Of a stretch of DNA of 64,000 nt, positions 4,937 through 51,301 are shown in pieces; the first letter of the stretch is position 1, and the number at the start of each line of letters is the position of its first letter. The DNA is from Octopus vulgaris (Eukaryota), in contig OX597830.1 of NCBI GenBank assembly GCA_951406725.2, positions 76,632,001 through 76,696,000 on the forward strand, written 5' to 3'. A model generated the notes under the pieces. The model was not told where the DNA came from. It saw nothing but the letters and a program-made list of their open reading frames with translations, and ran no database searches. The translations under genes and the position numbers were made by a program.

Positions 4937-5111
4937 TAAGAAAGTTTGTTTGGTAAAGCACGTGGGTGAATATATAAGAAAATAGTAAAGTGTGAAAAAA
5001 CGACAGAAGGCTTAAATGTTAAAAAATATATATATTTGTGTCAAAATGTCTGGAGAATATTGGAAAAATTTTTTTTCCTTTCCTTAAAATGACATAATTT
5101 TAAAATTTTTA

Positions 5112-5151
5112 AAGAAATTACCGGTTTCGCGTGTAGCTTTTCAAATTTCTT
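5112..5151 (-). ncRNA. Minimal hammerhead ribozyme in the PLE pLTR (U3-A8 core variant)
   Basis: Minus strand: AAGAAAT-TTGAAAA-GC TACAC GC-GAAA-CCGG-TA-ATTTCTT. Confidence 0.75.
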
Positions 5152-5288
5152 GTAACGTTATGTTTATATTGCATGGAATTATCGTTGTTTTTATTTCCAG
5201 GAGATTTCTAAATAAGGGGAGGTAGTGAGTGATTTTTTCCGGTGTAGGGGAGATAATCGCTTAAAAATTTTTTTTTCCCTTTTCCTTG

Positions 5289-6226
5289 TTAATTTCTCTG
5301 TGTCAGTATGTTCGGATGGTTGAGTCTGGGTTTGTACTTTTCAATGAAGAATGTTTCCTTGTTCAGTCTCATTTGTGTTGATGATCCGAAAGCACATTGG
5401 TAAAATGGGAAGATTAAAAATTGTGGCAGTAGTTGCTTTGCGCATTTCTCAATGTGCTCACTAAAAGGTATCATTCTATATTCTGGGAATGCAATCTGTT
5501 GTCGATGCAGTGTGCATCTGCGCCTGAGTGATAGTCCCGTGGAACCCACGTAGTCTTGGTGGCAGCCCGAGCATTTAATAACATAAATTATGTTTTCAGA
5601 GGCACAAGTAAAGTTAGATTTGATCTTAAATTTCTGTCCCTCTTTAAAGAAGAATTCTGATCCTTCCAATAGGTTAGGACATGTTGCACAGTTCGATCTA
5701 CCACATTTTTTTACTTTTGCATCCCTAATTTTAGAAGACAATTTTGCCTTTGTGAGAATCTTTTAAGTGATTTAGGCTGTTTGTAGCTTTTAATGATTTG
5801 GTGTATGTTTAGAATTTCCTTTAATTTTGGGTTTTTATGAAGTATTGGTAAATTCTGGGTGATGATGGTGAAGGCTTCTTTGTTTCTGGGGTTGTATGTA
5901 GATATGTAAGGTAGTATTTTCGGGGAAGGTGTGTTGTTGTGTTGAACTTTTCTTAAAGTTTCTATGTTGATTTCTGTTGCACGTCTGATCCCATCCTCTA
6001 TGAGTTGAGCTGGGTAATGTCTGTCAATTAGGGTGTTTTTGAGTTCTTGCAGTCTAAAGTTCCTGGTATTTTGTTCTGACACTATCGTGCATATCCTTCT
6101 TGCAAGGTTGAAGGGGATGTTTGTTTTAGTGTGTCTTGGGTGGCATGAATTAAAAAGAAGGTATTGTTTGGCGTCTGTGGCTTTGTAAAAAATGTCTGTT
6201 TCTATTTTAAGGTTAATTTTTTTATA
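5289..6226 (-). pseudogene. Penelope RT thumb + Cys-rich linker + GIY-YIG endonuclease (one frameshift near 5755)
   Basis: TDIFYKATDAKQYLLFNSCHPRHTKTNIPFNLARRI (PLE thumb), KKCGRSNCATCPNL (Cys linker), NIIYVIKCSGCHQDYVGST..LRRRCTLH..SEH..ETFFIEKYKPRLN (GIY-YIG with CCHH). It is split over ORFs 5711..6274 and 5289..5741. Confidence 0.92.
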
Positions 6227-6553
6227 TATAGAATGATACCTTTTAGTGAGCACATTGAGAAATGCGCAAAGCAACTACTGCCACAATTTTTAATCTTCCC
6301 ATTTTACCAATGTGCTTTCGGATCATCAACACAAATGAGACTGAACAAGGAAACATTCTTCATTGAAAAGTACAAACCCAGACTCAACCATCCGAACATA
6401 CTGACACAGAGAAATTAACAAGGAAAAGGGAAAAAAAAATTTTAAGCGATTATCTCCCCTACACCGGAAAAATCACTCACTACCTCCCCTTATTTAGAAA
6501 TCTCCTGGAAATAAAAACAACGATAATTCCATGCAATATAAACATAACGTCAC

Positions 6554-6593
6554 AAGAAATTTGAAAAGCTACACGCGAAACCGGTAATTTCTT
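6554..6593 (+). ncRNA. Minimal hammerhead ribozyme in the inverted PLE pLTR (U3-A8 core variant)
   Basis: AAGAAAT-TTGAAAA-GC TACAC GC-GAAA-CCGG-TA-ATTTCTT, with a 7-bp stem I, palindromic stem III (ACCGGT) and a GUA cleavage triplet. Confidence 0.75.
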
Positions 6594-6753
6594 TAAAAAT
6601 TTTAAAATTATGTCATTTTAAGGAAAGGAAAAAAAATTTTCCAATATTCTCCAGACATTTTGACACAAATATATATATTTTTTTAACATTTAAGCCTTCT
6701 GTCGTTTTTTCCCACTTTACTATTTTCTTATATATATATATATATATATACAG

Positions 6754-6816
<63 letters not shown>

Positions 6817-6870
6817 CATATATATCGTGTGAGATAGATAGATAGATACATACATACATACACACACACA

Positions 6871-6922
<52 letters not shown>

Positions 6923-7446
6923 TAAATTTCGCACATCGCACAGTCATGTACTCCTTCTATTTCACAGGTGCCGTGGACTCAAAAGTGAGACCACGCAAAC
7001 CATGCATTTGACCATCAGACCTCTTAATCACTCAATGAATTCTATAAACTTCTGACGCAACATAAATCAGTATTTTGCTAAACAAAAATACATAAAAAAT
7101 AAAACTGTAGTCATTTATTAGTTTCTCAATTAACGATATTTTCGTGTACAATGCAAATGAAATTGCTATCATATTGCAGCTGTTTCGTAAGACTTTAGAG
7201 TAAACACGAAAATACATAAATAAATATGGAGACAAGGACTTATTTCTTTAATGGAGAACCATTTTCAAAGTTTGTTTGATGCTGTATTTCCTTTTGTGTA
7301 GCGATAATAAAGTTACTTTAATTAATTTATATATTTATTTCCTGATGACTTAGCATCGGCGAATTATTCAATGTATTTCAGCCATTTTGATTCTCATTTT
7401 TCATTGATATTTCTGTTGTTGTTTTTATTCCATTATTCTTGTTGCT

Positions 7447-7678
7447 CGAGCTGGCAGAAACGTTAGCACGTCGGGCGAAATGCGTAGCCGTATTTCGTCT
7501 GCGGCTAAGTTCTGAGTTCAAATTCCTCCGAGGTCAACTTTGCCTTTCATCCTTTTGGGGTCGATTAAATAAGTACCCTGTTACGCACTGGGGTCGATAT
7601 ACTCAACTTAATCCATTTGTCTCTCCTTATTTGTCCTCTCTGTGTTTAGCCCCTTGTGGGTAGTAAAGAAATAGGTAT
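7447..7678 (+). mobile_element. SINE family B
   Basis: GAGCTGGCAGAAACGTTAGCAC..GAGTTCAAATTCC (B-box)..GAGGTCAACTTTGCCTTTCATCCTTTTGGGGTCG..; there are more than 15 copies or fragments in the window. Confidence 0.85.
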
Positions 7679-7679
7679 T

Positions 7680-7793
7680 GTTTCCAACTTCATGTCCCAT
7701 ATCTTGAATACTTCTATTTGACAATTTCTCCATTTCTTTTGGGGTAATATTTTGATCAGAAGGAATTGCAATGTCTGTCAGTAAGCATGTCTT

Positions 7794-7841
<48 letters not shown>

Positions 7842-8720
7842 CAATCCTTGATTATTATGTCTGGGCATTTAGCTTTGATTTCTTTGTCAGTTGGAACAGA
7901 CATGTCCCAGTTGACTATAGCTTTATTGTTGTCATGTACCAGACTGTGGTCTGTCTAGCATTCCGATCCTTGAAAGGACTTGACATTCCAAATGTTATAG
8001 ATGTCATGCTTACGGATGATGACATAATCCAGCAAGTGCCAAACTTTAGACCTTGGAAGCATCCACATTGTTGCATGATCACATTTTTGCATAAAATGAG
8101 TGCTTACGATGTGAAGTCCATATTCACCACAAAGCTCCAACAGCATGAGACCATTGTTATTCATTTTCCTATACCAAAACGTCCTAGAGAGTTCCATGCT
8201 TGCCAGTCTGTTCCAGCCCTGGCACTGAAACACCCCAGTAGAATGACTTTATCAGAATTGGGGATTTTCCTAAGTATGGCTCTCAGCCGGGTATAATAGT
8301 TTTATCTTCATCACAAGTCAAAGTAGCTGCATACGCACTTTTAGAACTTCTTAGGGATATCAGATCGAACTGCAAAGCCAACACAAACTTCTCTGTGCTC
8401 CTCCTTATGCCTCCCCTTCCAAAAACAGGTGTATCCACCCCCTACTTCCTCAAGCTGACCATCACCTTCTATATGAGTGTTCTCATTCCAACAGGAAATG
8501 TTCAAGTTCCATCCAGATTTTGTAAATAAAAGTCTCTGTTTTTCGAGCACAAGGTGAACATCCGTCAGTCGCGCTAAACTGACCCGATATAGAAAGAAAG
8601 ACAATTTTTGGTTCACCTTTACTCGAACATCTCCAGCCACCGGGTTAGCAGTGCCCTCTCCAAATGCAGCAACCGAATTCTGCCGCTGTCATGAGCGACA
8701 AAGAGACGGCTTCATATCTA
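7680..8720 (-). pseudogene. RTE-clade LINE, decayed AP-endonuclease region
   Basis: Translations GQLEEVGGGYTCFWKGR..HREVCVGFAVRSDI and NNNGLMLLELCGEYGLHIVSTHF..TMWMLPRSKVWHLLDYVIIRKHD match RTE endonuclease motifs. The region contains stops and frameshifts. Confidence 0.85.
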
Positions 8721-8969
8721 GCATGGGCCGCCCACGTGCAGGTCGCTGACTACATGCATCCAACCCGTCAGGTCTGCATGCTTCACCACGTGCCCATCGC
8801 CGCAGGACTTCCGAATAAAAGTAAAATAAATACATACTAAATAGAAATAAATACATAAGTATATATTATAAATAAATAAATATATAAATATATAATAAAA
8901 ATAAAGATACATACATACTGAAAATAAAATAAAAAATATTTTTTTGGGGAAAAGCAACATATATTGAGC

Positions 8970-9470
8970 AGAGGCCAGCAAAGCCTGTGCAGAGTTTTAT
9001 GTTTCAATAAGGCATGTACGACAGCTCATAGGCCCTCTCCACTTTATTGACATTATCCAGAGACAAGCGAGAGCAAGATGTTTGGTGCCAATATGAGTCG
9101 CAGGCTCAGGGATGTGGGAGCGCCATGATCTCTAACACAAATCAAAGATCCCCAAAATGTCCAATGTCATTCCCTGCTTATCAGAGTGTCCTTCCCCTAG
9201 AGACATGCTTCAACAGAAGCTGAGGGGTGCCTCACTCTCAGTGGTCTTTCAGCACGCCGGACACCATCCCGGAAATTCTACATACTCGTGCTATTGCTAG
9301 ATAGCCGTTGAGACTGCTATAGGTTCATCCGCTCTTTCAACAGGTCTTGTTTTTAATCCTGCTGGGTTTCTAGCAACCATCGTCACCAGGATAGCCCGGT
9401 GATGGTGCCGGTTTAGTCACCGACAACCCGACAATGTGACTGGTTGTACTGGATTCCATATTACCAGTAG
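8970..9470 (-). mobile_element. Probable 5' portion/UTR of the adjacent RTE element
   Basis: GC-richer non-microsatellite stretch directly upstream (minus sense) of the RTE endonuclease, separated by an AT-rich insert. The assignment rests on position only. Confidence 0.35.
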
Positions 9471-9568
9471 CAATTATGGGAGCCTCATAAGTGAATATGT
9501 ATATATATGCATACATATATATGTATATATATATATATACTTAAACACATATATATGTATATATGTAA

Positions 9569-9618
<50 letters not shown>

Positions 9619-9659
9619 TATAAACATATAAATACATATAAGTAACCTGACATATATAT

Positions 9660-9701
<42 letters not shown>

Positions 9702-9825
9702 GACATATATATATATATCTATGTACATACATATATAGATATATAGATATATATATACATATATATATATAATTGAACACGCACACATATATACAAATAT
9801 ATATGTCTATGTATACATACATACA

Positions 9826-10200
9826 TTGCTATAACACCTGTTAGCAACTTCCACATCAGTGGTAGGCAGGTTATTGGTCGGTGGTTACTGGCTATATTTC
9901 CTTTCTTTTGATCTTTCACTATTAACATCGTCCTGCCTTTCGCCATCCATTGAGGAACATCTCCTGTGTCAATACAACTATTTAGTTAGGTGCTCATTCT
10001 ATCATGAAGTGCGGTGAAACGTTTCAGCCAAAACCCTTTGTCCAAATCCGGTCCTGGGAAGTTCCACTTTGGTATTCCTTTCAAGATATTTTTTTAAAAT
10101 TTCTCCTGCGATCATTGTTTTTCTCTTTTGGTAATTCTGTGTTATTTTCCTTTATCTTCTTTAACCATTCTGCATCACCATTGTGCATGTCTTAGTATCA
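9826..10200 (-). pseudogene. Dong/R4-type (RLE) non-LTR retrotransposon RT fragment
   Basis: [40 protein letters not shown] matches the GRT.LI.K..NYRPITCLP..WKLLTG motif. Upstream codons give a degenerate PGPD..GFWLK. Confidence 0.8.
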
Positions 10201-10244
10201 CTACTAAGCATTATTAGGGGAATTCTGCTTCAAATTGAACCAAT

Positions 10245-10615
10245 CCTGACTGTGTGGTAAGAAATTTTCTTCCCAGCGTCACGGGCCTGAGTTCATTCCC
10301 AATGCGTGGTACATAGCCTCAGACCAACCACAATTTTATGAGTCCGTCGTATATATTTATATGTGTGTGTGTGTGGGGGGGAGTCTGTGTGTTTGAGTGT
10401 TTGTGTCAATGTTTATAGTATACCACCGCTTGACAACCGGTGTTGTTGCGTTTACGTCTCGCAACATGGTGGTTTGGGAAATGTGACACATAAATTTTAG
10501 TATCAGGTTTAAAAAGAAAATAAGTACCATAATCAATTAGTTCAACTAAAATTTCTCAAGGTGACACCTCAGTATGGCCCACTTCTAATGACTAAAACAA
10601 GTATAAAATAGAAGA
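10245..10615 (+). mobile_element. Diverged SINE family A copy
   Basis: CTGTGTGGTAAG head, CGCTTGACAACCGGTG body, and GTATGGCC..AATGACTAAAACAAGT tail. Confidence 0.65.
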
Positions 10616-10886
10616 CAAAAATATACAAATGTACCAAACATCCCAGAGAAAGCGGCACCGTGAAACTTCAAATGCGACTGACGCTTCCCTAAACGTTAAA
10701 TGGTATATATATACATACACATGTATACACACACATACGATTATCTAAGTATACATACTTTCGTTTATACACATATATATCATATATCAACATTTCCTTA
10801 CAGATCTAACAACTTCAATTAGGTTATAGGGAGAATATATAACGAAATCAAAGTAATTACGGATATTACACGGGCTATATATATAT

Positions 10887-10947
<61 letters not shown>

Positions 10948-11877
10948 CATGCATGTATGGATAATTGCATATCCATATATATATATATATGTATATATAT
11001 TTTATATATATATATATATATGTATGTATATATATTGTGTGTATATATATATACATACATGTGTATATATATATATCAGTATATATGTATATATATACAT
11101 TTATATATATATATACACGTGTGTATATGTATATATGTATAAATACATACACACACACACGCAGACAAACACATATGTATGCTAGTGTGTTTATGTGGTT
11201 GTCGGTACGTGTGTGCGCGAGCGCGCTTAATAGTAGAGGAAGGTTGAGAAAGGGACGAAATGATTGAGTATTACTTACATGTACTACGCACGCACGTGCA
11301 CACACACACACACATCTTTATCTATATGCGTATGCATATATTTATATATATATATGAATATATGTACGGATTCAAATATATCTGCATGTACATATACATA
11401 CATTCATACATTTATATTCATATAATTGCATATCACAAATATTAATTTTTCATATCATTCAAAAACGTCCATTCTACGATGACTCATTTTCGTTTCTATA
11501 ACTCTATTCGAATGAAACCCGAGGATTTCCCATTATAACTCTGCATGTTAATATAACAAGCTAATTAAGTAAGGAGAGAGATAATAAATAACTTTATATA
11601 TACACCCATTCGAACATACACAAAATACATTACAATACATTACAAGCACATACATACATATATACATGTATGTATGTATATATACGTATATACATACATA
11701 TATATGTGTGTGTATGTGAATGTAGTTGTATATATATGTATATATAGATATATATATATACATACATATGCATACATATATATATATATGCATACACACA
11801 CAAACACACACACACACATACACACACATACACACATATATACACATATATACACATACACACACACAAACACATAT

Positions 11878-11912
<35 letters not shown>

Positions 11913-11928
11913 CATATGTATACACATA

Positions 11929-11969
<41 letters not shown>

Positions 11970-11972
11970 TAC

Positions 11973-12099
<127 letters not shown>

Positions 12100-12537
12100 T
12101 GTATGTATGTATGTCTTTAAGAATGATTGGGATGATTTATGCGAGCTGACAGCCTAATGTGTTTATAACCTTCCTGAAATTCTAGAATTTTCCTTCAGGT
12201 TTTTGAAAAATGTTTAGAGATAAACGAAAAAATAAAAATCTCTAAACTTCTTATTTTGTATTTAAGTTGCAGCATATTTAGAATTACAAACGAACAAGAA
12301 ATAGGCGCCTATCTCCAGTTTTGTTTTATCGCATGAAGCAACTTAATGCAGATCAAATATTTTCCCCCTATAACCTTCTCCCGATATTTTGGTAAGGGAC
12401 CTGGTCTAGAATACATGGTGTTGCATTCCCGATAGTACGATCGTCGTTTCGATTCACGGAGTAGTCAGTGAACTTCCGTTCTTATGCAAAACACCTCATT
12501 TGCAAGTGTTTTATAGTGGTAAGAAGATCGCTTCTTA

Positions 12538-12757
12538 GGCGAGCTGGCAGAAACGCTAGCACACTGGGCGAAATGCGTAACCGTATTTCGTCTGCCGTTA
12601 CTTTCTGAGTTCAAATTCCGCCGAGGTCGACTTTGCCTTTTCGTCCTTTCGGGGTCGATAAATTAAGTACCAGTTACGCACTGGGGTCGATGTAATCGAC
12701 TTAATACCTTTGTTTGTCCCCTCTATGTTTAGCCCCTTGTGGATAATAAAGAAATAA
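12538..12757 (+). mobile_element. SINE family B
   Basis: GGCGAGCTGGCAGAAACGCTAGCAC..CCGAGGTCGACTTTGCC..TAATAAAGAAATA. Confidence 0.85.
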
Positions 12758-12916
12758 GAAGATCACTTCTCATCCATGCCGTCTTTCCACCATGTGGTTC
12801 TGCAGTTCAATCCCATTGCATGGGACCCTGGGTAAAGCTATCTTCCACTATTGCCCCGGAATGACCAAAGTCTTGTGGGTGAATCTAGTTGGCAGAAACT
12901 GAAAGAAGACCCTCTC

Positions 12917-12949
<33 letters not shown>

Positions 12950-12950
12950 G

Positions 12951-13195
12951 CATCGTCCGTTTTTCTGTCCCTGTTTCGTATACATTCGATCCTTCTTCCA
13001 AGAAATCTAGTGCTCGTGGCTTAGTTATTCCTTGGGGCTGGCCGGATCGGAGCGATCTCAAGATTAATCAGCCGAAATTGCGAAGATGATCCGGTTCTTG
13101 ACTGAAGATTGAGGGCTTCGAATGTCCCGTCCCTGTTTTTTGTATCGTCTTCTAAGTGTTTTGCGTTCTTGTCCCAGTTTGTATTTTTCTACATA
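12951..13195 (+). repeat. Unclassified dispersed repeat (3 copies in window)
   Basis: CATCGTCCGTTTT..GTATACATTCG..TTCCAAG(A/G)AATCTA..GCTTAGTT..TCCTTGGGGCTGGCC..ATCTCAAGATTAATCAGCCGA, also seen at ~38725-38980 and 43357-43482. Confidence 0.75.
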
Positions 13196-13206
13196 TAATA
13201 ATAATA

Positions 13207-13250
<44 letters not shown>

Positions 13251-13304
13251 ATTTATGTATGTATATATAACCTGGTCTGATATATGTATGTGTATGCATG
13301 TTTG

Positions 13305-13472
13305 TGTGTCTCTGTGCTCTCATCATCGCTTGACAACCGATTTTGGTGTGTTTACGTCCCCGTAACTTAGTGGTTCGGCCAAAGAGACCGATAGCATAAG
13401 CACTAGGCTTTGTTCGACGAAAAGCGGTGCTCGAGCATGGATACAGTCGAAGGACTGAAAAAATAAAAGAAT
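13305..13472 (+). mobile_element. SINE family A 3' half
   Basis: CATCGCTTGACAACCGA..CCCCGTAACTTAG..GCGGTGCTCGAGCATGG..CAGTCGAAGGACTGAAA; a diverged head lies at ~12790-12915. Confidence 0.75.
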
Positions 13473-13478
13473 ATATAT

Positions 13479-13880
13479 ATTACAAGGAAAAATGAGCACA
13501 CACGGAGGTTAATATTCTTTCGCTATTAAACCTAGGAAAGTACAAAACGTGTTTACACTTGGAAAAGTACAGGACACGCATATTTATACTTAAAATATTG
13601 CAGCTATAGTTGAAATTTAGAAATATATTTAGATTTCAAAATAGCAGTTAACCTTAAATTTATTATTAGAGTTAAGTTTTTTAATTATTGAGTAACTGAT
13701 AAAAGCTATTACTTTTAGTTTTTAGATCTAATATATTTTAAAATTTCAACTATAGCTGCAATATTTTAGATATAAGCATGCTTGTCCTATTCTTTTCCAG
13801 GTGTATAAACTCGTCCTGTACTTTCCCAGGTTAATAACTTAAGAATATTAACCTCCATGTGTCCGCATTTTTCATTGTAA
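13479..13880. repeat. Foldback element with ~170-bp imperfect inverted arms
   Basis: ATTACAAGGAAAAATG..GGAGGTTAATATTCTT..AATATTGCAGCTATAGTTGAAATTT pairs with AAATTTCAACTATAGCTGCAATATT..AAGAATATTAACCTCC..CATTTTTCATTGTAAT. Confidence 0.88.
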
Positions 13881-15346
13881 TCCACTTTATTTCCAAGCAA
13901 AGCAATTAAACTAATAAATAGTGACAATTAATAATTCATAATTTTACCTGATAAATTTTTTTCATTTTATTTAATACTTTTGTAAAATAATTTTTCAATT
14001 ATTTTTCATGTCTGATGATTGAATTAAAATAAAAATATGTATTGATCTAAATAAATTTAAAAAAAGGATTGTAAGAGCGCTTTAGTTACCCTGATTCGTG
14101 AGAAAATCGAAAATCGTTGCTAAGATTAAAAAATGAACGAACACATCCACCCTGTGGCTTGTGGAGCTATGCTCTCAAGGCAGAGCATCCACCACCTTTG
14201 TAGAGAAAATTATGAGAATAAATTAATAGAAAATGCTTTACGCTAGAAAGGTAGTGCGTATCTACAACTTGATGTCGGACTTGAAGCAGTGTTAGATTGC
14301 CAACATATTAAATAAGCTGTAAATATATGTTAGTTCGTTAGATCACACACACACACACACAAAAAAGTAATTAATAAATCAGTGAATGGTGAATCTGCAT
14401 TTTCCTTATTGTAGTAGTCAAAAAACGCAAGTTGCTGTACTGCAAATGCTAAATATTGATTCAAACAACTTAAATGCAAGATATAAGCATTTAATATATC
14501 AGTCAATATATCAGTCATTCATGATAAATAGTAAATTAATTATGAGAATTATAATTCTAAGTTTAATTAAGTATTCAATTTTATTGCATATTTTTAGATT
14601 CCTCTCGTTTTGATTTATCCTTTGAGATTAAATAAAATAGAGATTGCTTTTAAATAAAGTTTATTGAAGAACAAATCAATTGGAGACTTTACTTATTTTT
14701 TCGGCCCTTTTTGCTTCACAACTTCTTTATATTAAAGATTCTTTTAATAAAATTGCCTTTTTCTATACCCCTCTTGTTCCGTTTTATCATTTAAGCTTAA
14801 ATAAAATATAGTTTGCATTAAAATAATAAAGTTACTTTGATTCAAAGTCGATGTTTCGTCTTATGGACCTCACATATTGTAACGTAACTTTTTTCCATTG
14901 AACCAAATTTCTATATTTTATACCAAAATGTTGCTTGGGAGGTGACGGTTATGGAACTTGTGATAGATATGTATTTGCTTGAGAAATGAGTTAGAGACAA
15001 AGCTCTGAAGAGGCTTTGAGTGAGTAAATATCGGCCTTGAGAATATTATTTAACCACTGCCGTGGTTGAATGATATGTATGAGTTGTGACGTGCTCCTGT
15101 AATCCAACTGCTCGCAGACTTATTTGCTTGGCCCGTTTAAAGATGGGAGTCCTGGTAGTCGGTCTTCTATGGCAATCGGGTGTCCGTGCTAAGCTTGACA
15201 TCAATATGGTGCTGAAGAGGGAGCTCATCAGGACCAGGTTGTCTAAGGAGGGTCGCTTCGGGCCAGAGCGGAAACGGAGAAGGCAAAAGACCCCGTGTCG
15301 AGCAGTAATAGGATCTCGCCTGTGACTAGTCAACCTTTTAAATATA

Positions 15347-15765
15347 GGCGCAGGAGTGGCTGTGTCGTAAGTAGCTTGCTTACCAACTACATGGTTCCAG
15401 GTTCAGTCCCGCGGCGAGACACCTTGCGCAAGTGTCTTCTACTATAGCCTCGGGCCGACCAAAACTTTGTAAGTGGATTTTGTAGACGGAGACTGAAAGA
15501 AGCCCATCGAATATATATATATATTATATATATATATATATGTTTGTATGTATATATTTGTGCGTCCGTGTTTGTCCTCCCAACATCACTTGACAACCGA
15601 TGCTGGTGTGCTTACGTCCCCGTAACTTAGCGGTTCGGCAAAAGGAACCGATAGAATAAGTACTAAGCTTACAAAGAATAATTCCTGGGGTCGATTTGCT
15701 CAACTAAAAGTGGTGCTCCATCATGGCTGCAGTCAAATGACTGAAACGAATGAAATCATAAAAGA

Positions 15766-15766
<1 letters not shown>
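15347..15766 (+). mobile_element. SINE family A, full length (tRNA-like head, internal microsatellite, LINE-like tail)
   Basis: GGCGCAGGAGTGGCTGTGT..GGTTCAGTCCC..(TA)n..CTTGACAACCGATGCTGG..GGTGCTCC..CAGTCAAATGACTGAAAC. Confidence 0.9.
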
Positions 15767-15805
<39 letters not shown>

Positions 15806-15942
15806 AACACGCACACACATACACATGCACCTACACACACATACGTGTGTGTGTGTGTGTGTAGTTGTATGAAAAGGAACACCCGAGTTGATATGCATAA
15901 GGAAAATAAGAAAAAGGTAGAAAATGGTAAAATAATTCTATC

Positions 15943-15988
15943 ACTTTAGCACCGGTTTCAGTCTTTGCGACTTCTTCAAATTACAGTA
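15943..15988 (-). ncRNA. Decayed minimal hammerhead motif
   Basis: Minus strand: TTGAAGA-AGTC GCAAA GACT-GAAA-CCGG-TG. Stem II is perfect, but the triplet is GUG and stem I is eroded. Confidence 0.5.
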
Positions 15989-16278
15989 AAACATTAAAAA
16001 AAAATTAAATTGTGGAAAAATGAAATGAAATGTTTTTTTTTAATATGTCCATAATTTTCAAATGCAAGGAGCATTTTTTTGTCTGTGTCTCTCTCATTTT
16101 TAATTCTTGTAAAAGCTTTGTAGCAGGCAGTAGGTAGTAGCAGTCCTAAAAGACTATTTGATATGAGTTCTTGTGTGCAGTGCCCAGTAGTGCAATTTTC
16201 TGTATGCTATATATATATATATATTTGTAAGTCCTGGTGGTTTTTTATGTATTTATCTGAATATTATTATTATTATTA

Positions 16279-16388
<110 letters not shown>

Positions 16389-16392
16389 TTTA

Positions 16393-16449
<57 letters not shown>

Positions 16450-16450
16450 C

Positions 16451-16622
16451 CACCGAGGTCGACTTTGCCTTTCATCCTTTCGCGGTCGATAAATTAAGTA
16501 CCAGTTGCATATTGGGGTCAATCTAATTGACTGGCCCCCCTCCCCGAAAATTTCAGGCCTTGTGCCTAGAGTAGAAAGGATGATTATTATTATTATTATT
16601 ACTATTATTATTATTATTATTA

Positions 16623-16685
<63 letters not shown>

Positions 16686-17085
16686 CCGAGGTCGACTTTG
16701 CCTTTCATCCTTTTGCGGTCGATAAATTAAGTACCAGTTGCATATTGGGGTCAATCTAATTGACTGGCCCCCTCCCCGAAAATTTCAGGCCTTGTGCCTA
16801 GAGTAGAAAGGATGATTATTATTATTATTATTACTATTATTATTATTATTATTATTATTATCATTATTATCATTATTATTATTATTATTATTATCATTAT
16901 TATTATTATTACCACCGAGGTCGACTTTGCCTTACATCCTTTCGCGGTCGATAAATTAAGTACCAGTTGCATATTGGGGTCAATCTAATTGACTGGCCTC
17001 CCCACCCCGAAAATTTCAGGCCTTGTGCCTAGAGTAGAAAATATTATTATTATTATTATCATTATTATCATTATCACTATTATTA

Positions 17086-17136
<51 letters not shown>

Positions 17137-17265
17137 CCGAGGTCGACTTTGCCTTACATCCTTTCGCGGTCGATAAATTAAGTACCAGTTGCATATTGGG
17201 GTCAATCTAATTGACTGGCCCCCCTCCCCGAAAATTTCAGGCCTTGTGCCTAGAGTAGAAAAGAT
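16451..17265 (+). repeat. Four tandem ~130-bp SINE-B 3' fragments, each followed by (ATT)n
   Basis: The unit CACCGAGGTCGACTTTGCC...GTGCCTAGAGTAGAAA starts at 16451, 16684, 16913 and 17135. Confidence 0.93.
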
Positions 17266-17296
17266 TATTATTATTATCATTATTATTACTATTATT

Positions 17297-17347
<51 letters not shown>

Positions 17348-17949
17348 ATTATTATTATTATTATTATTAGTTATTTTTATTTATGGAGTTGACCTAAGAG
17401 GAGGAAGATCAGTTTACCGTCGCGAGACCTGGGTTGTAATTTATGTTTCCTTCGAGTTTCTTCGTTCGCTCTGAATGTCGCTCTTGGGTCATTACATTGA
17501 TTCTCGCCCTTGTGTTAACTGCTATTAATTTGTCATTTATTTAATGAACTAGCAAATACGGCAGTAGTTTATCACTTTTTACGGCTCTTGCTGAAATTGT
17601 TGTCCGGTTTTGTTTTCTTTTTTTCGATTTATTACTTTTGTTAAGGACAAAGCACTCCTTTGTAGTTGTCGTTGTTGTCGTTGTTGTAGTTGTTGTAGTT
17701 GTTGTAGCTATTGTTGTTGTTGTTGCTCTTGTTTTTGGTGTTGTTGTTTTATAGTCGTAATATTCCGACACTGAATTGTTTCGTTTTGTGGCTCAATTTA
17801 TTGATACTTGTTTTTGATGTTGTTGTAGTTTTCATTGTTGGTGCTATTGTTGGTAGTGCTGCTGCTGCCGCTGCTACTGCTGCTGGAGGTGCAGCTCTTC
17901 GTCTTCTTCTTTCCTTTGTCGTCGCCATCCCCTCGTTCTCATCACCAAG

Positions 17950-18587
17950 ACCAGCACCACTGTCATCGTCGTAGTCATCGTCGTAGTCATCGTCGTAGTC
18001 ATCGTCGTGGTCGTCGTCGTCGTCGTCATCATCGTTATCATCATTGATATTGTCGCCAACACACAAACCACCACTACCAGTATCAACATCAACATCGTCA
18101 CCATCATCATCCCTATCAACATCGCCGCCGCGACCACCGCCGCGACCACCGCCGCGACCACCGCCGCGACCACCGCCATATCACTATAGTCATTATCTTT
18201 ACCATTATGAAGGGACAACGACGGCGACCACAACCACCGCTATCATCATCATCATTATCATCATCGTCATCGTTATTTTCTTCTTCTTCTTCTTCTTCTT
18301 CTTCTTCTTCTTCTTCTTCTTCTGCTTCTTCTTCTTCTTCTTCTTCTTCTTCTTCTTCTTCTTCTTCTTCTTCTTCTTCTTCTTCTTCTTCTTCTTCTTC
18401 TTCTTCTTCTTCTTCTTCTTCTTCTTCTTCTTCTTCTTCTTCTTCTTCTTCTTCTTCTTCTTCTTCTTCTTCTTCTATATCATCATCACGACGACGATGA
18501 CCACCGCCACCACCACTATCGTCATCATCATCATCATTATCATCATCGTCGTCGTCGTTAGTTTCTTCTTCTTCTTCTTCTTCTTTG

Positions 18588-18618
<31 letters not shown>

Positions 18619-19507: not shown

Positions 19508-19549
19508 TAAGAATTATTTAGTTAAGGCGACAAGCTGGTAGAATCGTTA

Positions 19550-20081
19550 CTTAATTCTTTACTGCCCATAAGTGGTTACACACAGAGGGGACAAATAAGG
19601 ACAGTCAAACGGATTAAGTCGATTATATCGATCCCAGTGCGTAACTGGTACTTATTTAATCGACCCAGAAAGGATGAAAGGCAAAGTCGACCTCGGCGGA
19701 ATTTGAACTCAGAACTAGCTGCAGGCGAAATACCTATTTCTTTACTACCCACAAGGGGCTAAACACAGAGAGGACAAACAAGGACAGACAAACGGATTAA
19801 GTCGATTACATCGACCCCAGTGCGTAACTGGTACTTAATTTAATCGACCCCGAAAGGATGAAAGGCAAAGTCGACCTCGGCGGAATTTGAACTCAGAACG
19901 TAGGGGCAGGCGAAATACCTATTTCTTTACTACCCACAAGGGGCTAAACACAGAGAGGACAAACAAGGACAGACAAACGGATTAAGTCGATTATATCGAC
20001 CCCAGTGCGTAACTGGTACTTATTTAATCGACCCAGAAAGGATGAAAGGCAAAATCGACCTCGGCGGAATTTGAACTCAGA
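19550..20081 (-). mobile_element. Head-to-tail SINE-B trimer (~184-bp units)
   Basis: Units are joined at GAAATACCTATTTCTTTACTACCCACAAGG (junctions at ~19735 and ~19919). Confidence 0.9.
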
Positions 20082-21587: not shown

Positions 21588-21647
<60 letters not shown>

Positions 21648-21649
<2 letters not shown>

Positions 21650-21891
21650 TTTATTAATAAAGCTATAAAGATATCACAAAATCTGTTAATCAGAGTTTCA
21701 TGCTTCCGTTCATTGGTAATTTTTGGTTTAGTATGGAATAAAATATGATTATATGCAGCAATATAAATATGCACATATTTATGCATATAACCATATTATG
21801 TTCCATTCTAAACCAAAAGAGTCCAACGATCGGGAACCTGAAACTCTGAGTAATACCTTTGCGATGTCTTTGTAGCTTTATTAATAAAGTA
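21648..21891. repeat. (TA)n-flanked foldback cassette with a decayed hammerhead motif (+ strand, 21813-21861)
   Basis: Arms TACTTTATTAATAAAGCTA..CAGAGTTTCA / TGAAACTCTG..TAGCTTTATTAATAAAGTA. Motif CCAACGA..GAAAC-TCTGA-GTA. Confidence 0.7.
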
Positions 21892-21958
21892 TATTACTCT
21901 ACCTCCAGAATTCGAGTACTATTTTCTCTAGCTGGTTTCGCATTTATGTGCTTACGCT

Positions 21959-22025
<67 letters not shown>

Positions 22026-22523
22026 GTATGTATACTCATTCATACACATATCTGCATACATACACATAACTAAAATGTTCGTAAAAACGGTTAACATACA
22101 CACACACCACGTAACTGGGTGGCATGGACTTCCAAAGCCCTATGTTCACAGATTCAATTACATTTCGTGGTACCTTGAGCAAGTGTTTCTACTATAGCTT
22201 CGGGCCTATTAAAGTACTGTGAATAGATTTGGCAGACGGGAACTGAGAGAAGCCCGAAATATATATATTTACATATATATATATATTTATATATATAATT
22301 AATCAATATAGGGTGGCAAAAAAAATTTTGTAGAATTCTTTTGCCTCCAGCGGCCTAGTGGGAAAAAATTAAATAGTCATAAACCATTTTTACGTTCAAC
22401 ATCACAATCAAGGAACGGCCATAATAGGCCATTCACCCACTAGAAATAACAGCCAAAAGCTTTAACCGCAAAATAACATTAATACCGTAAACCAGGAGAA
22501 AATTGAAAAACTTTTACCCTGTA

Positions 22524-22630
22524 ATTTCTTAGACGATGCACCGTTTCATCTACCGTTTAATGGTAAACTAACCTGATTAAATTAAATCAAGCCAATCCAC
22601 CATAGGCCCTTAGACTCATCAGTAAGAAAT
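22524..22630 (-). ncRNA. Hammerhead ribozyme, canonical core
   Basis: Minus strand: ATTTCTTA-CTGATGA-GTCTA..TAGAT-GAAAC-GGTGCATC-GTC-TAAGAAAT, with an 8-bp stem I and a GUC triplet. Confidence 0.9.
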
Positions 22631-23013
22631 AGCCAAGTCGGAACAGATATTTTTCACGAGGCATTCCTCTTGCTACCTCGGCAATATCTGACCTAAAATT
22701 TTCAAATCGTCGCACTCGCGCCAAATTTATCGGCAGCAAATAAATATAAGCTACCGATTCCCTTACGGAACTAACCAGAAAATTCATAATTAATCAATAT
22801 AGGGTGGCAAAAAAAATTTTGTAGAATTCTTTTGCCTCCAGCGGCCTAGTGGGAAAAAATTAAATAGTCATAAACCATTTTTACGTTCAACATCACAATC
22901 AAGGAACGGCCATAATAGGCCATTCACCCACTAGAAATAACAGCCAAAAGCTTTAACCGCAAAATAACATTAATACCGTAAACCAGGAGAAAATTGAAAA
23001 CTTTTACCCTGTA

Positions 23014-23120
23014 ATTTCTTAGACGATGCACCGTTTCATCTACCGTTTAATGGTAAACTAACCTGATTAAATTAAATCAAGCCAATCCACCATAGGCCCT
23101 TAGACTCATCAGTAAGAAAT
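23014..23120 (-). ncRNA. Hammerhead ribozyme, canonical core (second unit)
   Basis: Identical to 22524-22630, 490 bp away. Confidence 0.9.
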
Positions 23121-23400
23121 AGCCAAGTCGGAACAGATATTTTTCACGAGGCATTCCTCTTGCTACCTCGGCAATATCTGACCTAAAATGAGTCTAAGGG
23201 CCTATGGTGGATTGGCTTGATTTAATTTAATCAGGTTAGTTTACCATTAGATGAAACGGTGCATCGTCTAAGAAATTACAGGGTAAAAGTTTTTCAATTT
23301 TCTCCTGGTTTACGGTATTAATGTTATTTTGCGGTTAAAGCTTTTGGCTGTTATTTCTAGTGGGTGAATGGCCTATTATGGCCGTTCCTTGATTGTGATG

Positions 23401-23444
<44 letters not shown>

Positions 23445-25607: not shown

Positions 25608-26218
25608 GCTCAAATTTTGCCACAAGGGCAGTCATCTTGGGGAAGGGAATGTGTCGATTACATTGACCCCCAGTGTTTCACTGATACTTAATTTATCGAC
25701 CCCGAAAGGATGAAAGGCAAACTCAAACACAGCGCAATTTGAACTCAGAACGCAGCGACGGATGGAATACTACTAAGCATTTCGCCCGGCATGCTGACAT
25801 TTCTTATTTCTTTATTGCCCACAAGGGGCTAAACATAGAGGGGACAAACAAGGACAGACAAGGGGATTAAGTCGATTACATCGACCCCAGTGCGTAACTG
25901 GTGCTTAATTAATCGACCCCGAAAGGATGAACGGCAAATCGACCTCGGCAGAATTTGAACAAAGAACGTAACGGCAGACGAAATACCTATTTCTTTACTA
26001 CCCACAAGAGGCTAAACACACAGAGGACAAACAAGGACATACAAACGGATTAAGTCGATTACATCGACCCCGGTGCCTAACTGGTACCTAATTTATCGAC
26101 CCCGAAAGGATGAAAGGCAAAGTCGACCTCGGCGGAATTTGAACTCAGAACGTAACGGCAGACGAAATACGGCTACGCATTTCGCCCGGCGTGCTAACAT
26201 TTCTGCCTGCTCGCCACC
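25608..26218 (-). mobile_element. SINE-B cluster including a head-to-tail dimer (~184-bp unit)
   Basis: Same GAAATACCTATTTCTTTACTACCCACAAG junction at ~25980; head-end CTGCTCGCC at ~26210. Confidence 0.88.
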
Positions 26219-46745: not shown

Positions 46746-46792
<47 letters not shown>

Positions 46793-46941
46793 AATATAAG
46801 AGAGTGGTCACTATATGGCTCACTCTAGCACCAGTTAATCCAAAAGGTTTCAACCACGAAAATACATGTTTCCCATGAAAGTCAGTACGATTGTTAGCTC
46901 ACACGGACAGGGCAAATAAAAAATAACAAAAATACAGATTA

Positions 46942-47025
46942 TTTTGGGACAATTGTTTCGCTATTAATGAATTAAATGTAATTTTACTTACAAAAAAAAA
47001 TCCATTTGTAGCTCGTCAGCCAAAA
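46942..47025 (-). ncRNA. Hammerhead ribozyme, canonical core
   Basis: Minus strand: TTTTGG-CTGACGA-GCTA..TAGC-GAAAC-AATT-GTC-CCAAAA, with palindromic stem III (ACAATTGT). Confidence 0.92.
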
Positions 47026-47481
47026 CTATCTGGATGAAATCCACTCAATCACACGCCAGATTTTACCATAACGATAAATACGCGTGTGGTTCAATTGATT
47101 ACATCCGACGTTATAATTCAAATGCCCCAACTAACAGCGCGCCAAACTTTCACGGAAAACAAATACAGCATTTAGAAATAAATGCAGCATATATATATAA
47201 TTAATTAATAAGGGTGAGAGAATTAGATACTAATTTAATAGTATATCTATTCAACACCAAGTGGCCTAGTGCTACGAGAAACCTGGATTATTATAATATT
47301 TTATAACATATTATAATATTTTTTACAAAATAAATATAAGAGAGTGGTCACTATATGGCTCACTCTAGCACCAGTTAATCCAAAAGGTTTCAACCACGAA
47401 AATACATGTTTCCCATGAAAGTCAGTACGATTGTTAGCTCACACGGACAGGGCAAATAAAAAATAACAAAAATACAGATTA

Positions 47482-47564
47482 TTTTGGGACAATTGTTTCG
47501 CTATTAATGAATTAAATGTAATTTTACTTACAAAAAAAATCCATTTGTAGCTCGTCAGCCAAAA
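47482..47564 (-). ncRNA. Hammerhead ribozyme, canonical core (second unit)
   Basis: Same as 46942-47025 apart from a 1-nt shorter A-run in loop II; 540 bp away. Confidence 0.92.
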
Positions 47565-48037
47565 CTATCTGGATGAAATCCACTCAATCACACGCCAGAT
47601 TTTACCATAACGATAAATACGCGTGTGGTTCAATTGATTACATCCGACGTTATAATTCAAATGCCCCAACTAACAGCGCGCCAAACTTTCACGGAAAACA
47701 AATACAGCATTTAGAAATAAATGCAGCATAATTATAATTAATTAATAAGGGTGAGAGAATTAGATACTAATTTAATAGTATATCTATTCAACACCAAGTG
47801 GCCTAGTGCTACGAGAAACCTGGATTATTATAATATTTTATAACATATTATAATATTTTTTACAAAATAAATATAAGAGAGTGGTCACTATATGGCTCAC
47901 TCTAGCACCAGTTAATCCAAAAGGTTTCAACCACGAAAATACATGTTTCCCATGAAAGTCAGTACGATTGTTAGCTCACACGGACAGGGCAAATATATAT
48001 ATATACATATATATACATGCATATATATATGTACAAA

Positions 48038-49840: not shown

Positions 49841-51301
49841 TATATATATATATATATATATAAACTTAGATAAACTTAGATATGTTTCGACCAGAGATTG
49901 GTCCAGGTCATGTCTAACTTAATAGCACCACCTGATAGGATTATTCGAATCCTATTTAAGTCAAGTTTTGTTCAAGTAGTGAGTTCTTGTTGGGTGAGTT
50001 GTATCCAATTATGGGTGGCTTATCTGCTATTCTTTGAAGGAATCTATCCAGACTCTGTTTAAAGTTGATGGGATCCTTTTCCTCTTTGATCTCCCTCGGG
50101 ACAATGTTAAATAGGGCAGGGCCTGTTGAGGAAAAGAAATTATGTTGCAGTGTACATGTATGTTGTGATCTTGAATTTGGCAGGGGACGTATAGCCCGTG
50201 GTCCAAGTCTTGGATGAACCTTGAAGCTAATGTTTAGGTCATTTGGGCAAAGTTGGCGGTATATTTTCCACATCGTACAAATGATGTACCGCTCACGGCG
50301 ACGCTGAAGGGAGTAAAGTTTCAAGGCTTTAAGGCGATCCCAATAATCGAGAGCAGCCATGCCTTCAATTTGTTTAGTGAGAGCCCTCTGGGGTGACTCA
50401 ATTCTGGAGATGTTTTGTCTTGTGTGAGGAGACCACAGTGGGCAGCAGTATTCAAGGTGTGGCCGTACAAAGGAGGAAAAAAGTGGTATGATGACACCTT
50501 GTTCTCTGGACCGGAAAGTTCTTAAGATCCAGGAACTCATCCTACGAGCTATATCGACCTTCTTGTTGATGTACGCACTCCAACTGAGATCGTCATCAAC
50601 AATTACACCCAGATCTCTGATATTGTTAGAGGCTGTGAGCGGTTCCCCTGAAGGAAGAGAGTATGGTTGTTTTAGTGAGGAATTTCTTCCAAAATGCATC
50701 AGCTCAAATTTTCCCTCATTCAGTTGCATTTTGTTTCTGTCTGCCCATTGACTCACAGCATATAGATCAGACTGGAGTTGAGTTCGGTCTGCTTCTTCAT
50801 TGACGATTTGCTGGAGCTTAGTGTCATCAGCGAATATTTTCACTTTGCAGTGATGTACGATACTGGAAAGGTCGTTTACGTAAATTATGAAGAGTAGCGG
50901 GCCCAAAACAGTTCCCTGGGGAACACCGCTGGTGACTTTTGCTGGGTTTGAGTGGACTCCATCAACTACAACATGTTGTGTTCTATTCGCCAGGAAATAC
51001 TTAATCCAGTGTAGAACTTTTCCACGGATTCCAACATTTGCCAATTTTGAGAGTAGGATGTTATGGTCTACCCTGTCGAACGCTTTACTGAAGTCAAGAT
51101 ATATGACGTCAGAGTTCGAACCTGTTCCCAAGGCTTTGAGTACATCTTCAATGTGGTGTAAGAGCTGTGTTAGACAGTCCCTGCCACAGCGAAAGCCATG
51201 CTGATTTGAGTTTAGGAGTTTGTGGGTCTCCAGGAAGTCAGCTATCCTTGATCTTAACACTCTTTCAAACACTTGATCTTAACACTCTTTCAAACACTTT
51301 A
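49841..51301 (-). mobile_element. Young 5'-truncated CR1-like LINE with 27-bp target-site duplication
   Basis: TSD ATGCATGTATGTATATATGTATATAAG at 49814-49840 and 51302-51328. 3' tail (TCTAAGTTTA)2 plus (TA)n. 25-bp tandem duplication at the 5' junction. Confidence 0.92.
49956..51272 (-). CDS. Non-LTR retrotransposon reverse transcriptase (ORF2, N-terminally truncated, open for 438 codons)
   Basis: QHGFRCGRDC, YLDFSKAFDRVDH, SGVPQGTVLGPLLFIIYVNDL, IFADDTKL, RDLGVIVD, RPHLEYC, YSLQRRRER. Confidence 0.95.
   Translation of the reverse strand: MFERVLRSRIADFLETHKLLNSNQHGFRCGRDCLTQLLHHIEDVLKALGTGSNSDVIYLDFSKAFDRVDHNILLSKLANVGIRGKVLHWIKYFLANRTQHVVVDGVHSNPAKVTSGVPQGTVLGPLLFIIYVNDLSSIVHHCKVKIFADDTKLQQIVNEEADRTQLQSDLYAVSQWADRNKMQLNEGKFELMHFGRNSSLKQPYSLPSGEPLTASNNIRDLGVIVDDDLSWSAYINKKVDIARRMSSWILRTFRSREQGVIIPLFSSFVRPHLEYCCPLWSPHTRQNISRIESPQRALTKQIEGMAALDYWDRLKALKLYSLQRRRERYIICTMWKIYRQLCPNDLNISFKVHPRLGPRAIRPLPNSRSQHTCTLQHNFFSSTGPALFNIVPREIKEEKDPINFKQSLDRFLQRIADKPPIIGYNSPNKNSLLEQNLT

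Follow-up and report, generated by a model that had tools for sequence, protein, structure and literature searches.

Penelope-like elements (PLEs) have been proposed to mobilise the non-LTR retrozymes of metazoans, an argument that draws on a shared hammerhead ribozyme (HHR), on co-occurrence and on similarity to the PLE pseudo-LTR (pLTR), at least in the accounts cited here (Cervera and de la Pena, 2020, PMC7229834; Li, Clavereau and Pollet, 2026, bioRxiv 10.64898/2026.07.22.740005). PLE insertions themselves are said to consist of incomplete tandem copies plus an inverted, truncated one, with an extension of 30–40 nt at one end (Arkhipova et al., 2013, PMC3846280, Craig et al., 2021, PMC8557442). 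The PAc protein is reported to extend both target strands in vitro, with reverse transcription starting at two internal RNA sites that bound the tail, and the HHR is reported to be dispensable for PAc in vitro (Frangieh et al., 2024, PMC11167929). For the copying of retrozymes, and for the origin of the inverted arms and one-sided tails of PLEs, rolling circles, self-priming and endonuclease resolution figure among the published suggestions. In L1 twin priming, a single RNA is primed by both 3′ ends of the target, which gives a 5′ inversion. Our literature search returned no paper on tails or paired ends of retrozymes, or on retrozymes in cephalopods; supplements and Repbase lay outside its scope, and the family described below may be catalogued there.

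Here, we describe a hammerhead repeat in a window of the Octopus vulgaris genome, the window being the whole stretch of 64,000 nucleotides that was analysed. The window locus represents a single copy of a retrozyme family that is young, dispersed and devoid of ORFs. Neither the retrozyme class nor a breakpoint in the ribozyme core is new or special; the testable part is the paired-end, PLE-like footprint of the family. We consider it likely that this protein-free 490-nt hammerhead repeat, a non-LTR retrozyme, is inserted by a PLE RT/GIY-YIG enzyme that primes twice on its RNA.

Units are numbered from the first base past the GUC cut (u1), and the features of the locus are collected in Table 1. 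The minus strand carries a sense arm of 1.83 tandem units of 490 nt, in which a 405-nt direct repeat (22295–22699 and 22786–23189) is 99.75% identical and the two predicted HHR cut sites are spaced 490 nt apart. The inverted arm begins at the fourth base of CUGAUGA (u403) and is without 7 nt near 23249, in the internal loop of domain II; its HHR, which has neither the 5′ strand of stem I nor the CUG, is predicted from the sequence to be inactive in cis. A target-site duplication (TSD) was looked for in the (TA)n flanks of this locus, and none was readable there. The longest ATG ORF in a trimer of the unit is 66 aa. A preliminary description of the locus had reported 1.8 direct units with one HHR each and sites 490 nt apart, an 8-bp stem I in both HHRs, a 213-bp inverted copy starting inside the CUGAUGA core with a small deletion in loop II, and no ORF. 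All of this is borne out by the measurements, and no arm is joined to an ORF in the 83 insertions considered below. Its loop II of about 60 nt is indeed long, but is actually a structured domain of 68 nt.

Table 1. Positions, within the window, of the hammerhead locus and of other features
Feature	Position	Strand	Description
Type I hammerhead 1	23014..23120	-	stem I 8 bp, CUGAUGA 23112-23106, 68-nt domain II, GAAA, 4-bp stem III with UGCA loop, predicted GUC cut 23022|23021
Type I hammerhead 2	22524..22630	-	identical to hammerhead 1; CUGAUGA starts at 22622; predicted cut 22532|22531
Sense arm	22295..23189	-	895 nt: u323-490, u1-490, u1-236; 3′ end (22295) of the long 'B' class (u236), adjoining (TA)n
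Inverted arm	23188..23400	+	213 nt: u403-490 and u1-131; 3′ end (23400) of the short 'A' class (u130/131), adjoining (TA)n
Complete cut-to-cut monomer	22532..23021	-	490 nt, 37% GC, no long ORF; predicted linear or circular retrozyme RNA
'Tail' of ~106 nt (u131-236)	22295..22400	-	between the two fixed 3′ ends; B end only
Head-to-head junction of two 5′ ends	23188..23189	.	2-nt microhomology (AT)
Left (TA)n target flank	22259..22294	.	
Right (TA)n target flank	23401..23444	.	
Metazoan SRP RNA gene	15077-15360	+	128.7 bits
Tandem array	19548-20081		dispersed 183-184-nt repeat
Tandem array	25805-26170		dispersed 183-184-nt repeat
Open frame	49956-51278	-	440 aa; presumably resembles a LINE reverse transcriptase fragment

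Both HHRs of the sense arm have a type I core, with CUGANGA (at u400–406), GAAA, an NUH site, stems I–III and an open stem I. Domain II folds into a 19-bp hairpin joined through an internal loop to a 5-bp stem, whose closing pair is G-U; both this closing pair of stem II and the length of domain II depart from the canonical form. The Rfam Hammerhead_1 model (RF00163) scores both HHRs at 22 bits (E 0.02) against a gathering score of 34, and at the gathering threshold Rfam reports no HHR in the window. Because this score is sub-threshold, the identification as HHRs relies on the core sequence, the fold (z −4.0) and covariation. In an alignment of 17 hand-picked rows from several subfamilies, with identity down to 72–80%, 92% of cells are paired and 6 of 32 pairs show two-sided changes, which are spread over stems I, II and III; the signal comes mostly from one subfamily split. 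The stem II pair 10.1–11.1 occurs as A-U, G-C and G-U; within the core, N7 and N17 are the sole variable positions across these 17 rows. Eight of nine predicted Xenopus retrozymes are listed as giving no in vitro cleavage (Li, Clavereau and Pollet, 2026).

A minus-strand read-through RNA is predicted to form a hairpin of ~213 bp, which would sequester the first HHR and leave the second outside; the earlier suggestion that a read-through transcript folds into dsRNA stands to this extent, as a fold prediction. Contigs from runs that are only guessed to be RNA contain the unit; the unique flanks are empty, ends, strand and circles are not readable there, and these contigs are given no weight as a sign of expression.

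The repeat is abundant. Across the genome (2.8 Gb), a 20-mer taken from the unit matches exactly at 1,900 places, which implies at least 1,900 units. Outer 3′ ends fall into two classes, A (u125–135) and B (u231–248), and exact junctions with (TA)n number 433 for A and 812 + 157 for B, where 812 is the main class and 157 are u233-type ends; there are therefore about 1,000 insertions, with B the commoner end. We mapped 83 insertions, namely the 40 best-matching arrays, window copy included, and 43 at the first 42 further loci along contig C1, a set picked by position and not by match quality. They comprise 53 head-to-head insertions, 26 single-armed ones and 4 too complex to score. The complex loci (L050, L100, L105 and L107) and a 20-nt extra match in L032 were left out of the counts, and three 5′ ends and L110 were set by hand from junction sequences. 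No unit-to-ORF junction occurs in the 83 insertions, the 5′ neighbour always being another unit, the opposite arm or flank. The largest arrays hold ~20 units. At L060 and L112 (G000:C10:17474900-17483900), an array of ~20 units, unit variants recur periodically, which suggests local amplification or a very long mixed template.

In sequence, the family matches a metazoan non-LTR retrozyme: its non-coding units stand in tandem and each has a single type I HHR, and it has dispersed copies (the 1,900 20-mer matches) without LTR-type flanks and with TSDs longer than 4 bp (9–15 nt at 8 of 75 loci). An ORF for RT and GIY-YIG, which would mark an autonomous EN+ PLE, was found neither in the unit nor attached to it in the 83 insertions. 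Sister subfamilies (L113–L144; 106 pattern matches) are 72–80% identical, with units of ~480–490 nt and compensatory HHR changes, and a sister subfamily has the same two 3′ ends as the 490-nt family. An apparent lead to a partner PLE was rejected, as it proved to be a sister retrozyme subfamily with similar unit spacing.

Two further elements of the window lie between (TA)n tracts. Another HHR array, on the minus strand at ~46790–47995, is a single arm with a ~540-nt period, a CUGACGA/GUC core and a 5′ end ~30 nt past the predicted cut; to the 490-nt unit it shows only a weak 24-nt match in the B-end region (E 0.045). An older palindromic element at ~21644–21894, 79% self-complementary over 252 nt, is possibly a decayed head-to-head insertion.

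What is informative is not the start of the inversion but the pair of outer 3′ ends, to which the preliminary description had not drawn attention. In 50 of the 53 head-to-head insertions, one arm ends at u~130 (A) and the other at u~236 (B), both in (TA)n; the pairs A+A and B+B do not occur among the 53, and the remaining three combine one A end with one off-class end. The position-sampled C1 set alone gives A+B in 24 of 26. TA runs adjoin 125 of 131 fixed 3′ ends. Judged by eye, TSDs of 14–15 nt are readable at 6 of 75 loci, and of 9–10 nt at two more, most others being pure TA and unreadable. The tail measures ~103–106 nt, outside the 30–40 nt of PLE tails, and is present at one end only; together with tandem and inverted 5′-truncated copies it makes up the PLE footprint in 50 of 53 insertions. 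The end pattern of the 490-nt family is the Penelope 'tail' signature, enlarged to ~106 nt.

The same genome holds two young, intact RT/GIY-YIG PLE families of 775 and 781 aa, with many identical copies (L145–L204; L101:4646-6970), which target (TA)n and have tails of 32 and 38 nt. Resident PLE head-to-head pairs with clean ends combine a short and a long end in 5 of 5 cases, with ends 32–40 nt apart; one pair with a broken end was excluded. One of the five serves as an in-window control: a 5′-truncated RT/GIY-YIG PLE at ~4939–6728, head-to-head in (TA)n, whose ends differ by a tail of ~40 nt. The pLTR of the 775-aa family mostly reads CCGAAGA where the HHR core would be CUGANGA. The unit has no similarity to the PLE of the window, nor to the PLE 3′ ends sampled (60 loci and two others, of 6,136–18,593 candidates; best blastn E 0.46). 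The preliminary description had attributed the spread of a non-autonomous unit to PLE machinery. The non-coding unit, head-to-head arms, one-end tail, (TA)n targets and 14–15-nt TSDs agree with that proposal; no pLTR similarity was seen among the sampled PLE ends. Among the points against priming at two sites by a PLE enzyme are a tail about three times the 30–40 nt described for PLEs, and the lack of an autonomous PLE with matching terminal sequence among the sampled ends.

The inner 5′ ends are variable in position and are joined by 0–5 nt of microhomology or by short fillers. Only 3 of 132 arm 5′ ends lie in the CUGAUGA core (u400–406), against 1.8 expected from positions at risk (p 0.27), and the 7-nt deletion is private to the inverted arm of the window among 237 segments of the first 40 arrays, which rules it out as a family variant. 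A special significance of the inversion start inside the core, or of the loop II deletion, is not supported. Breakpoint mapping relative to the HHR, proposed in the preliminary description and run here on the 132 arm 5′ ends, shows that 5′ ends are enriched just 3′ of the predicted cut, not in the core. At u1–30 lie 25 of 132 ends against 8.8 expected, the top 30-nt interval of the unit, although this interval was chosen from the cut position after the breakpoints had been inspected. The corresponding figures are 14 of 66 against 4.6 for the C1 set, and 11 ends against 4.6 for multi-unit arms. Three 5′ ends fall exactly at u1 (L036 twice, and L047), and u199–215 is mildly enriched (9 against 4.9, p 0.057). 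The pile-up at u1–30 fits run-off of the reverse transcriptase at a self-cleaved 5′ end, followed by trimming; stalling of the enzyme before the folded HHR, or AT-rich joining, could look alike. The enrichment at the predicted cut bears on the role of the HHR.

Two-site PLE priming is read from the A+B pairing, the (TA)n targets, the TSDs, the short-plus-long rule of the resident PLEs and the in vitro start sites of PAc. In the mechanism that we propose, tandem copies would be transcribed and partly self-cleaved, giving linear monomers or multimers with their 5′ end at the cut, and perhaps circles. A PLE endonuclease would cut both strands of a (TA)n tract ~14 nt apart, whereupon reverse transcription would start from one 3′-OH at u236 and from the other 3′-OH at u130, in many cases on a single RNA. 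Each cDNA would extend toward the RNA 5′ end or stop early, and end-joining of the two cDNA ends would create the inversion. A single successful priming would leave a single arm, in most cases with its 3′ end at u236. For the window locus, the breakpoint inside CUGAUGA would be one random outcome of an early cDNA stop and end-joining.

Several observations bear on the template. In 17 of 50 insertions both 5′ ends lie no more than 30 nt apart, against 7.7 by permutation (p 3e-4), and 11 of these share unit register; shared 5′ ends fit the expectation that both primers use one RNA. With pairs that both end near the cut removed, the signal weakens to 10 against 5.6 (p 0.04). The order of unit variants along both arms, used as a same-molecule test, gave a mixed outcome, partly homopolymer noise.

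The same element and enzyme could also operate on a template that is mainly a monomeric RNA circle, with rolling-circle reverse transcription from two sites, which we rate as rather improbable. Such a template would suit the 103 of 132 arms that cross at least one cut site, and the 68 that cross at least two. It would likewise suit units that are closer within an insertion (mean 2.3–2.4 differences) than to those at other loci (6.3), and the private markers found in every unit of several arrays. Retrozyme circles are on record for coral, mussel and axolotl (Cervera and de la Pena, 2020). Against it, a circle lacks a 5′ end, whereas the arm 5′ ends pile up at the cut, including the three exactly at u1. 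Moreover, variants present in only some units yet in both arms (275A>C in L056, 435A>C in L064 and a 6-nt deletion in L055) would need a mixed multimer template or later conversion. At those loci, the subset variants favour mixed multimeric RNA over a single monomer circle; homogeneous arrays fit either, and circle and linear multimer templates are not mutually exclusive.

One priming event might instead suffice if the first cDNA folded back and copied itself, and an endonuclease then resolved the hairpin at a fixed site to produce the tail asymmetry. Self-priming with EN-mediated resolution is among the suggestions made for PLE inversions and tails (Arkhipova et al., 2013, Craig et al., 2021). 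Fold-back is compatible with 36 of 50 insertions; the window locus itself fits geometrically, its inverted arm lying within the sense arm with an 80-nt spacer, and near-perfect palindromic junctions are found at L036, L067 and L092. However, in 14 of 50 insertions each arm includes sequence absent from the other, and there the second arm is therefore not a fold-back copy of the first cDNA. The A arm is longer than the B arm in 18 of 50 insertions and single-armed insertions end at either fixed site, both of which also count against fold-back, leaving it a slim chance.

We regard it as very unlikely that the unit is the pseudo-LTR of an autonomous PLE, with a heavily 5′-truncated copy in the window and no separate family. 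PLE pLTRs do carry type I HHRs and give an equal architecture, and retrozymes are said to resemble pLTRs (Li, Clavereau and Pollet, 2026). On the other hand, no ORF is attached 5′ of any unit in the 83 insertions, arrays reach ~20 units, and the PLE ORFs near L074 and L101 are from families with unrelated ends. An error of assembly, or a satellite that was inverted secondarily at the level of DNA, is hardly credible: inverted repeats in (TA)n assemble poorly, and in four other runs the window junction was not bridged and no empty site was seen, which by itself proves nothing, but 53 two-armed insertions (52 besides the window locus) have locus-specific breakpoints, fixed ends and TSDs, one arm has a private deletion, and short-read contigs of two other runs contain inversion joints of the 490-nt family.

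More tentatively, and leaning slightly against it, we put forward the broader idea that PLE inversions and tails arise by obligatory two-site priming, in which a PLE dimer would use both ends of one (TA)n break and two fixed internal sites on a ribozyme-trimmed RNA. A retrozyme without detectable similarity to its partner would then have a pair of start sites of its own, separated by 106 nt. Were this idea to hold, the insertions would testify directly, at the level of the genome, to the mobilisation of retrozymes by PLE enzymes; the ribozyme cut would set the template 5′ end in vivo, and the start sites would be recognised by structure. The 490-nt RNA is young, has about 1,000 insertions and two mapped start sites, and shares its genome with intact PLE ORFs, and so offers a small, direct substrate for the published PLE in vitro assay.

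The Octopus family shares several features with metazoan non-LTR retrozymes as described in the accounts cited here (Cervera and de la Pena, 2020, Li, Clavereau and Pollet, 2026): non-coding units arranged in tandem, each with a single type I HHR, a GC content under 50%, TSDs that exceed 4 bp, and PLEs alongside. The unit size of 490 nt compares with 150–450 nt (Cervera and de la Pena, 2020) and 51–972 nt (Li, Clavereau and Pollet, 2026) in these sources. The 68-nt structured domain II is unlike the metazoan non-LTR retrozymes described there, and head-to-head insertions, two fixed 3′ ends and (TA)n targeting, all seen here, do not figure in the parts of the two descriptions drawn on here. Similarity to pLTRs, reported there for known retrozymes, was not found here among the sampled PLE ends.

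With EN+ PLEs, the family has in common partial tandems with an inverted 5′-truncated copy, a one-end extension, AT-rich or (TA)n targets and TSDs (Arkhipova et al., 2013, Craig et al., 2021). Unlike the EN+ PLEs in these accounts, it has a unit without an ORF and a tail of ~103–106 nt, not 30–40 nt. The tail is optional or often present in the PLE papers as far as cited here, whereas the pairing is near-strict in the Octopus family (50 of 53). In L1 twin priming the second site is variable and near the first cDNA stop; in the 490-nt unit it is sequence-fixed, and both arms can copy the same region. Chlamys elements like MRC1, which are non-autonomous, and, by our reading, the 490-nt unit are all non-coding PLE passengers with multicopy head-to-tail insertions; the unit differs from MRC1-type elements, which are described as resembling their autonomous partner at the 3′ end and as belonging to a clade without canonical HHRs (Craig et al., 2021). 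Finally, two internal start sites downstream of the HHR, deduced here from the ends, are common to the 490-nt unit and to PAc as reported in vitro (Frangieh et al., 2024).
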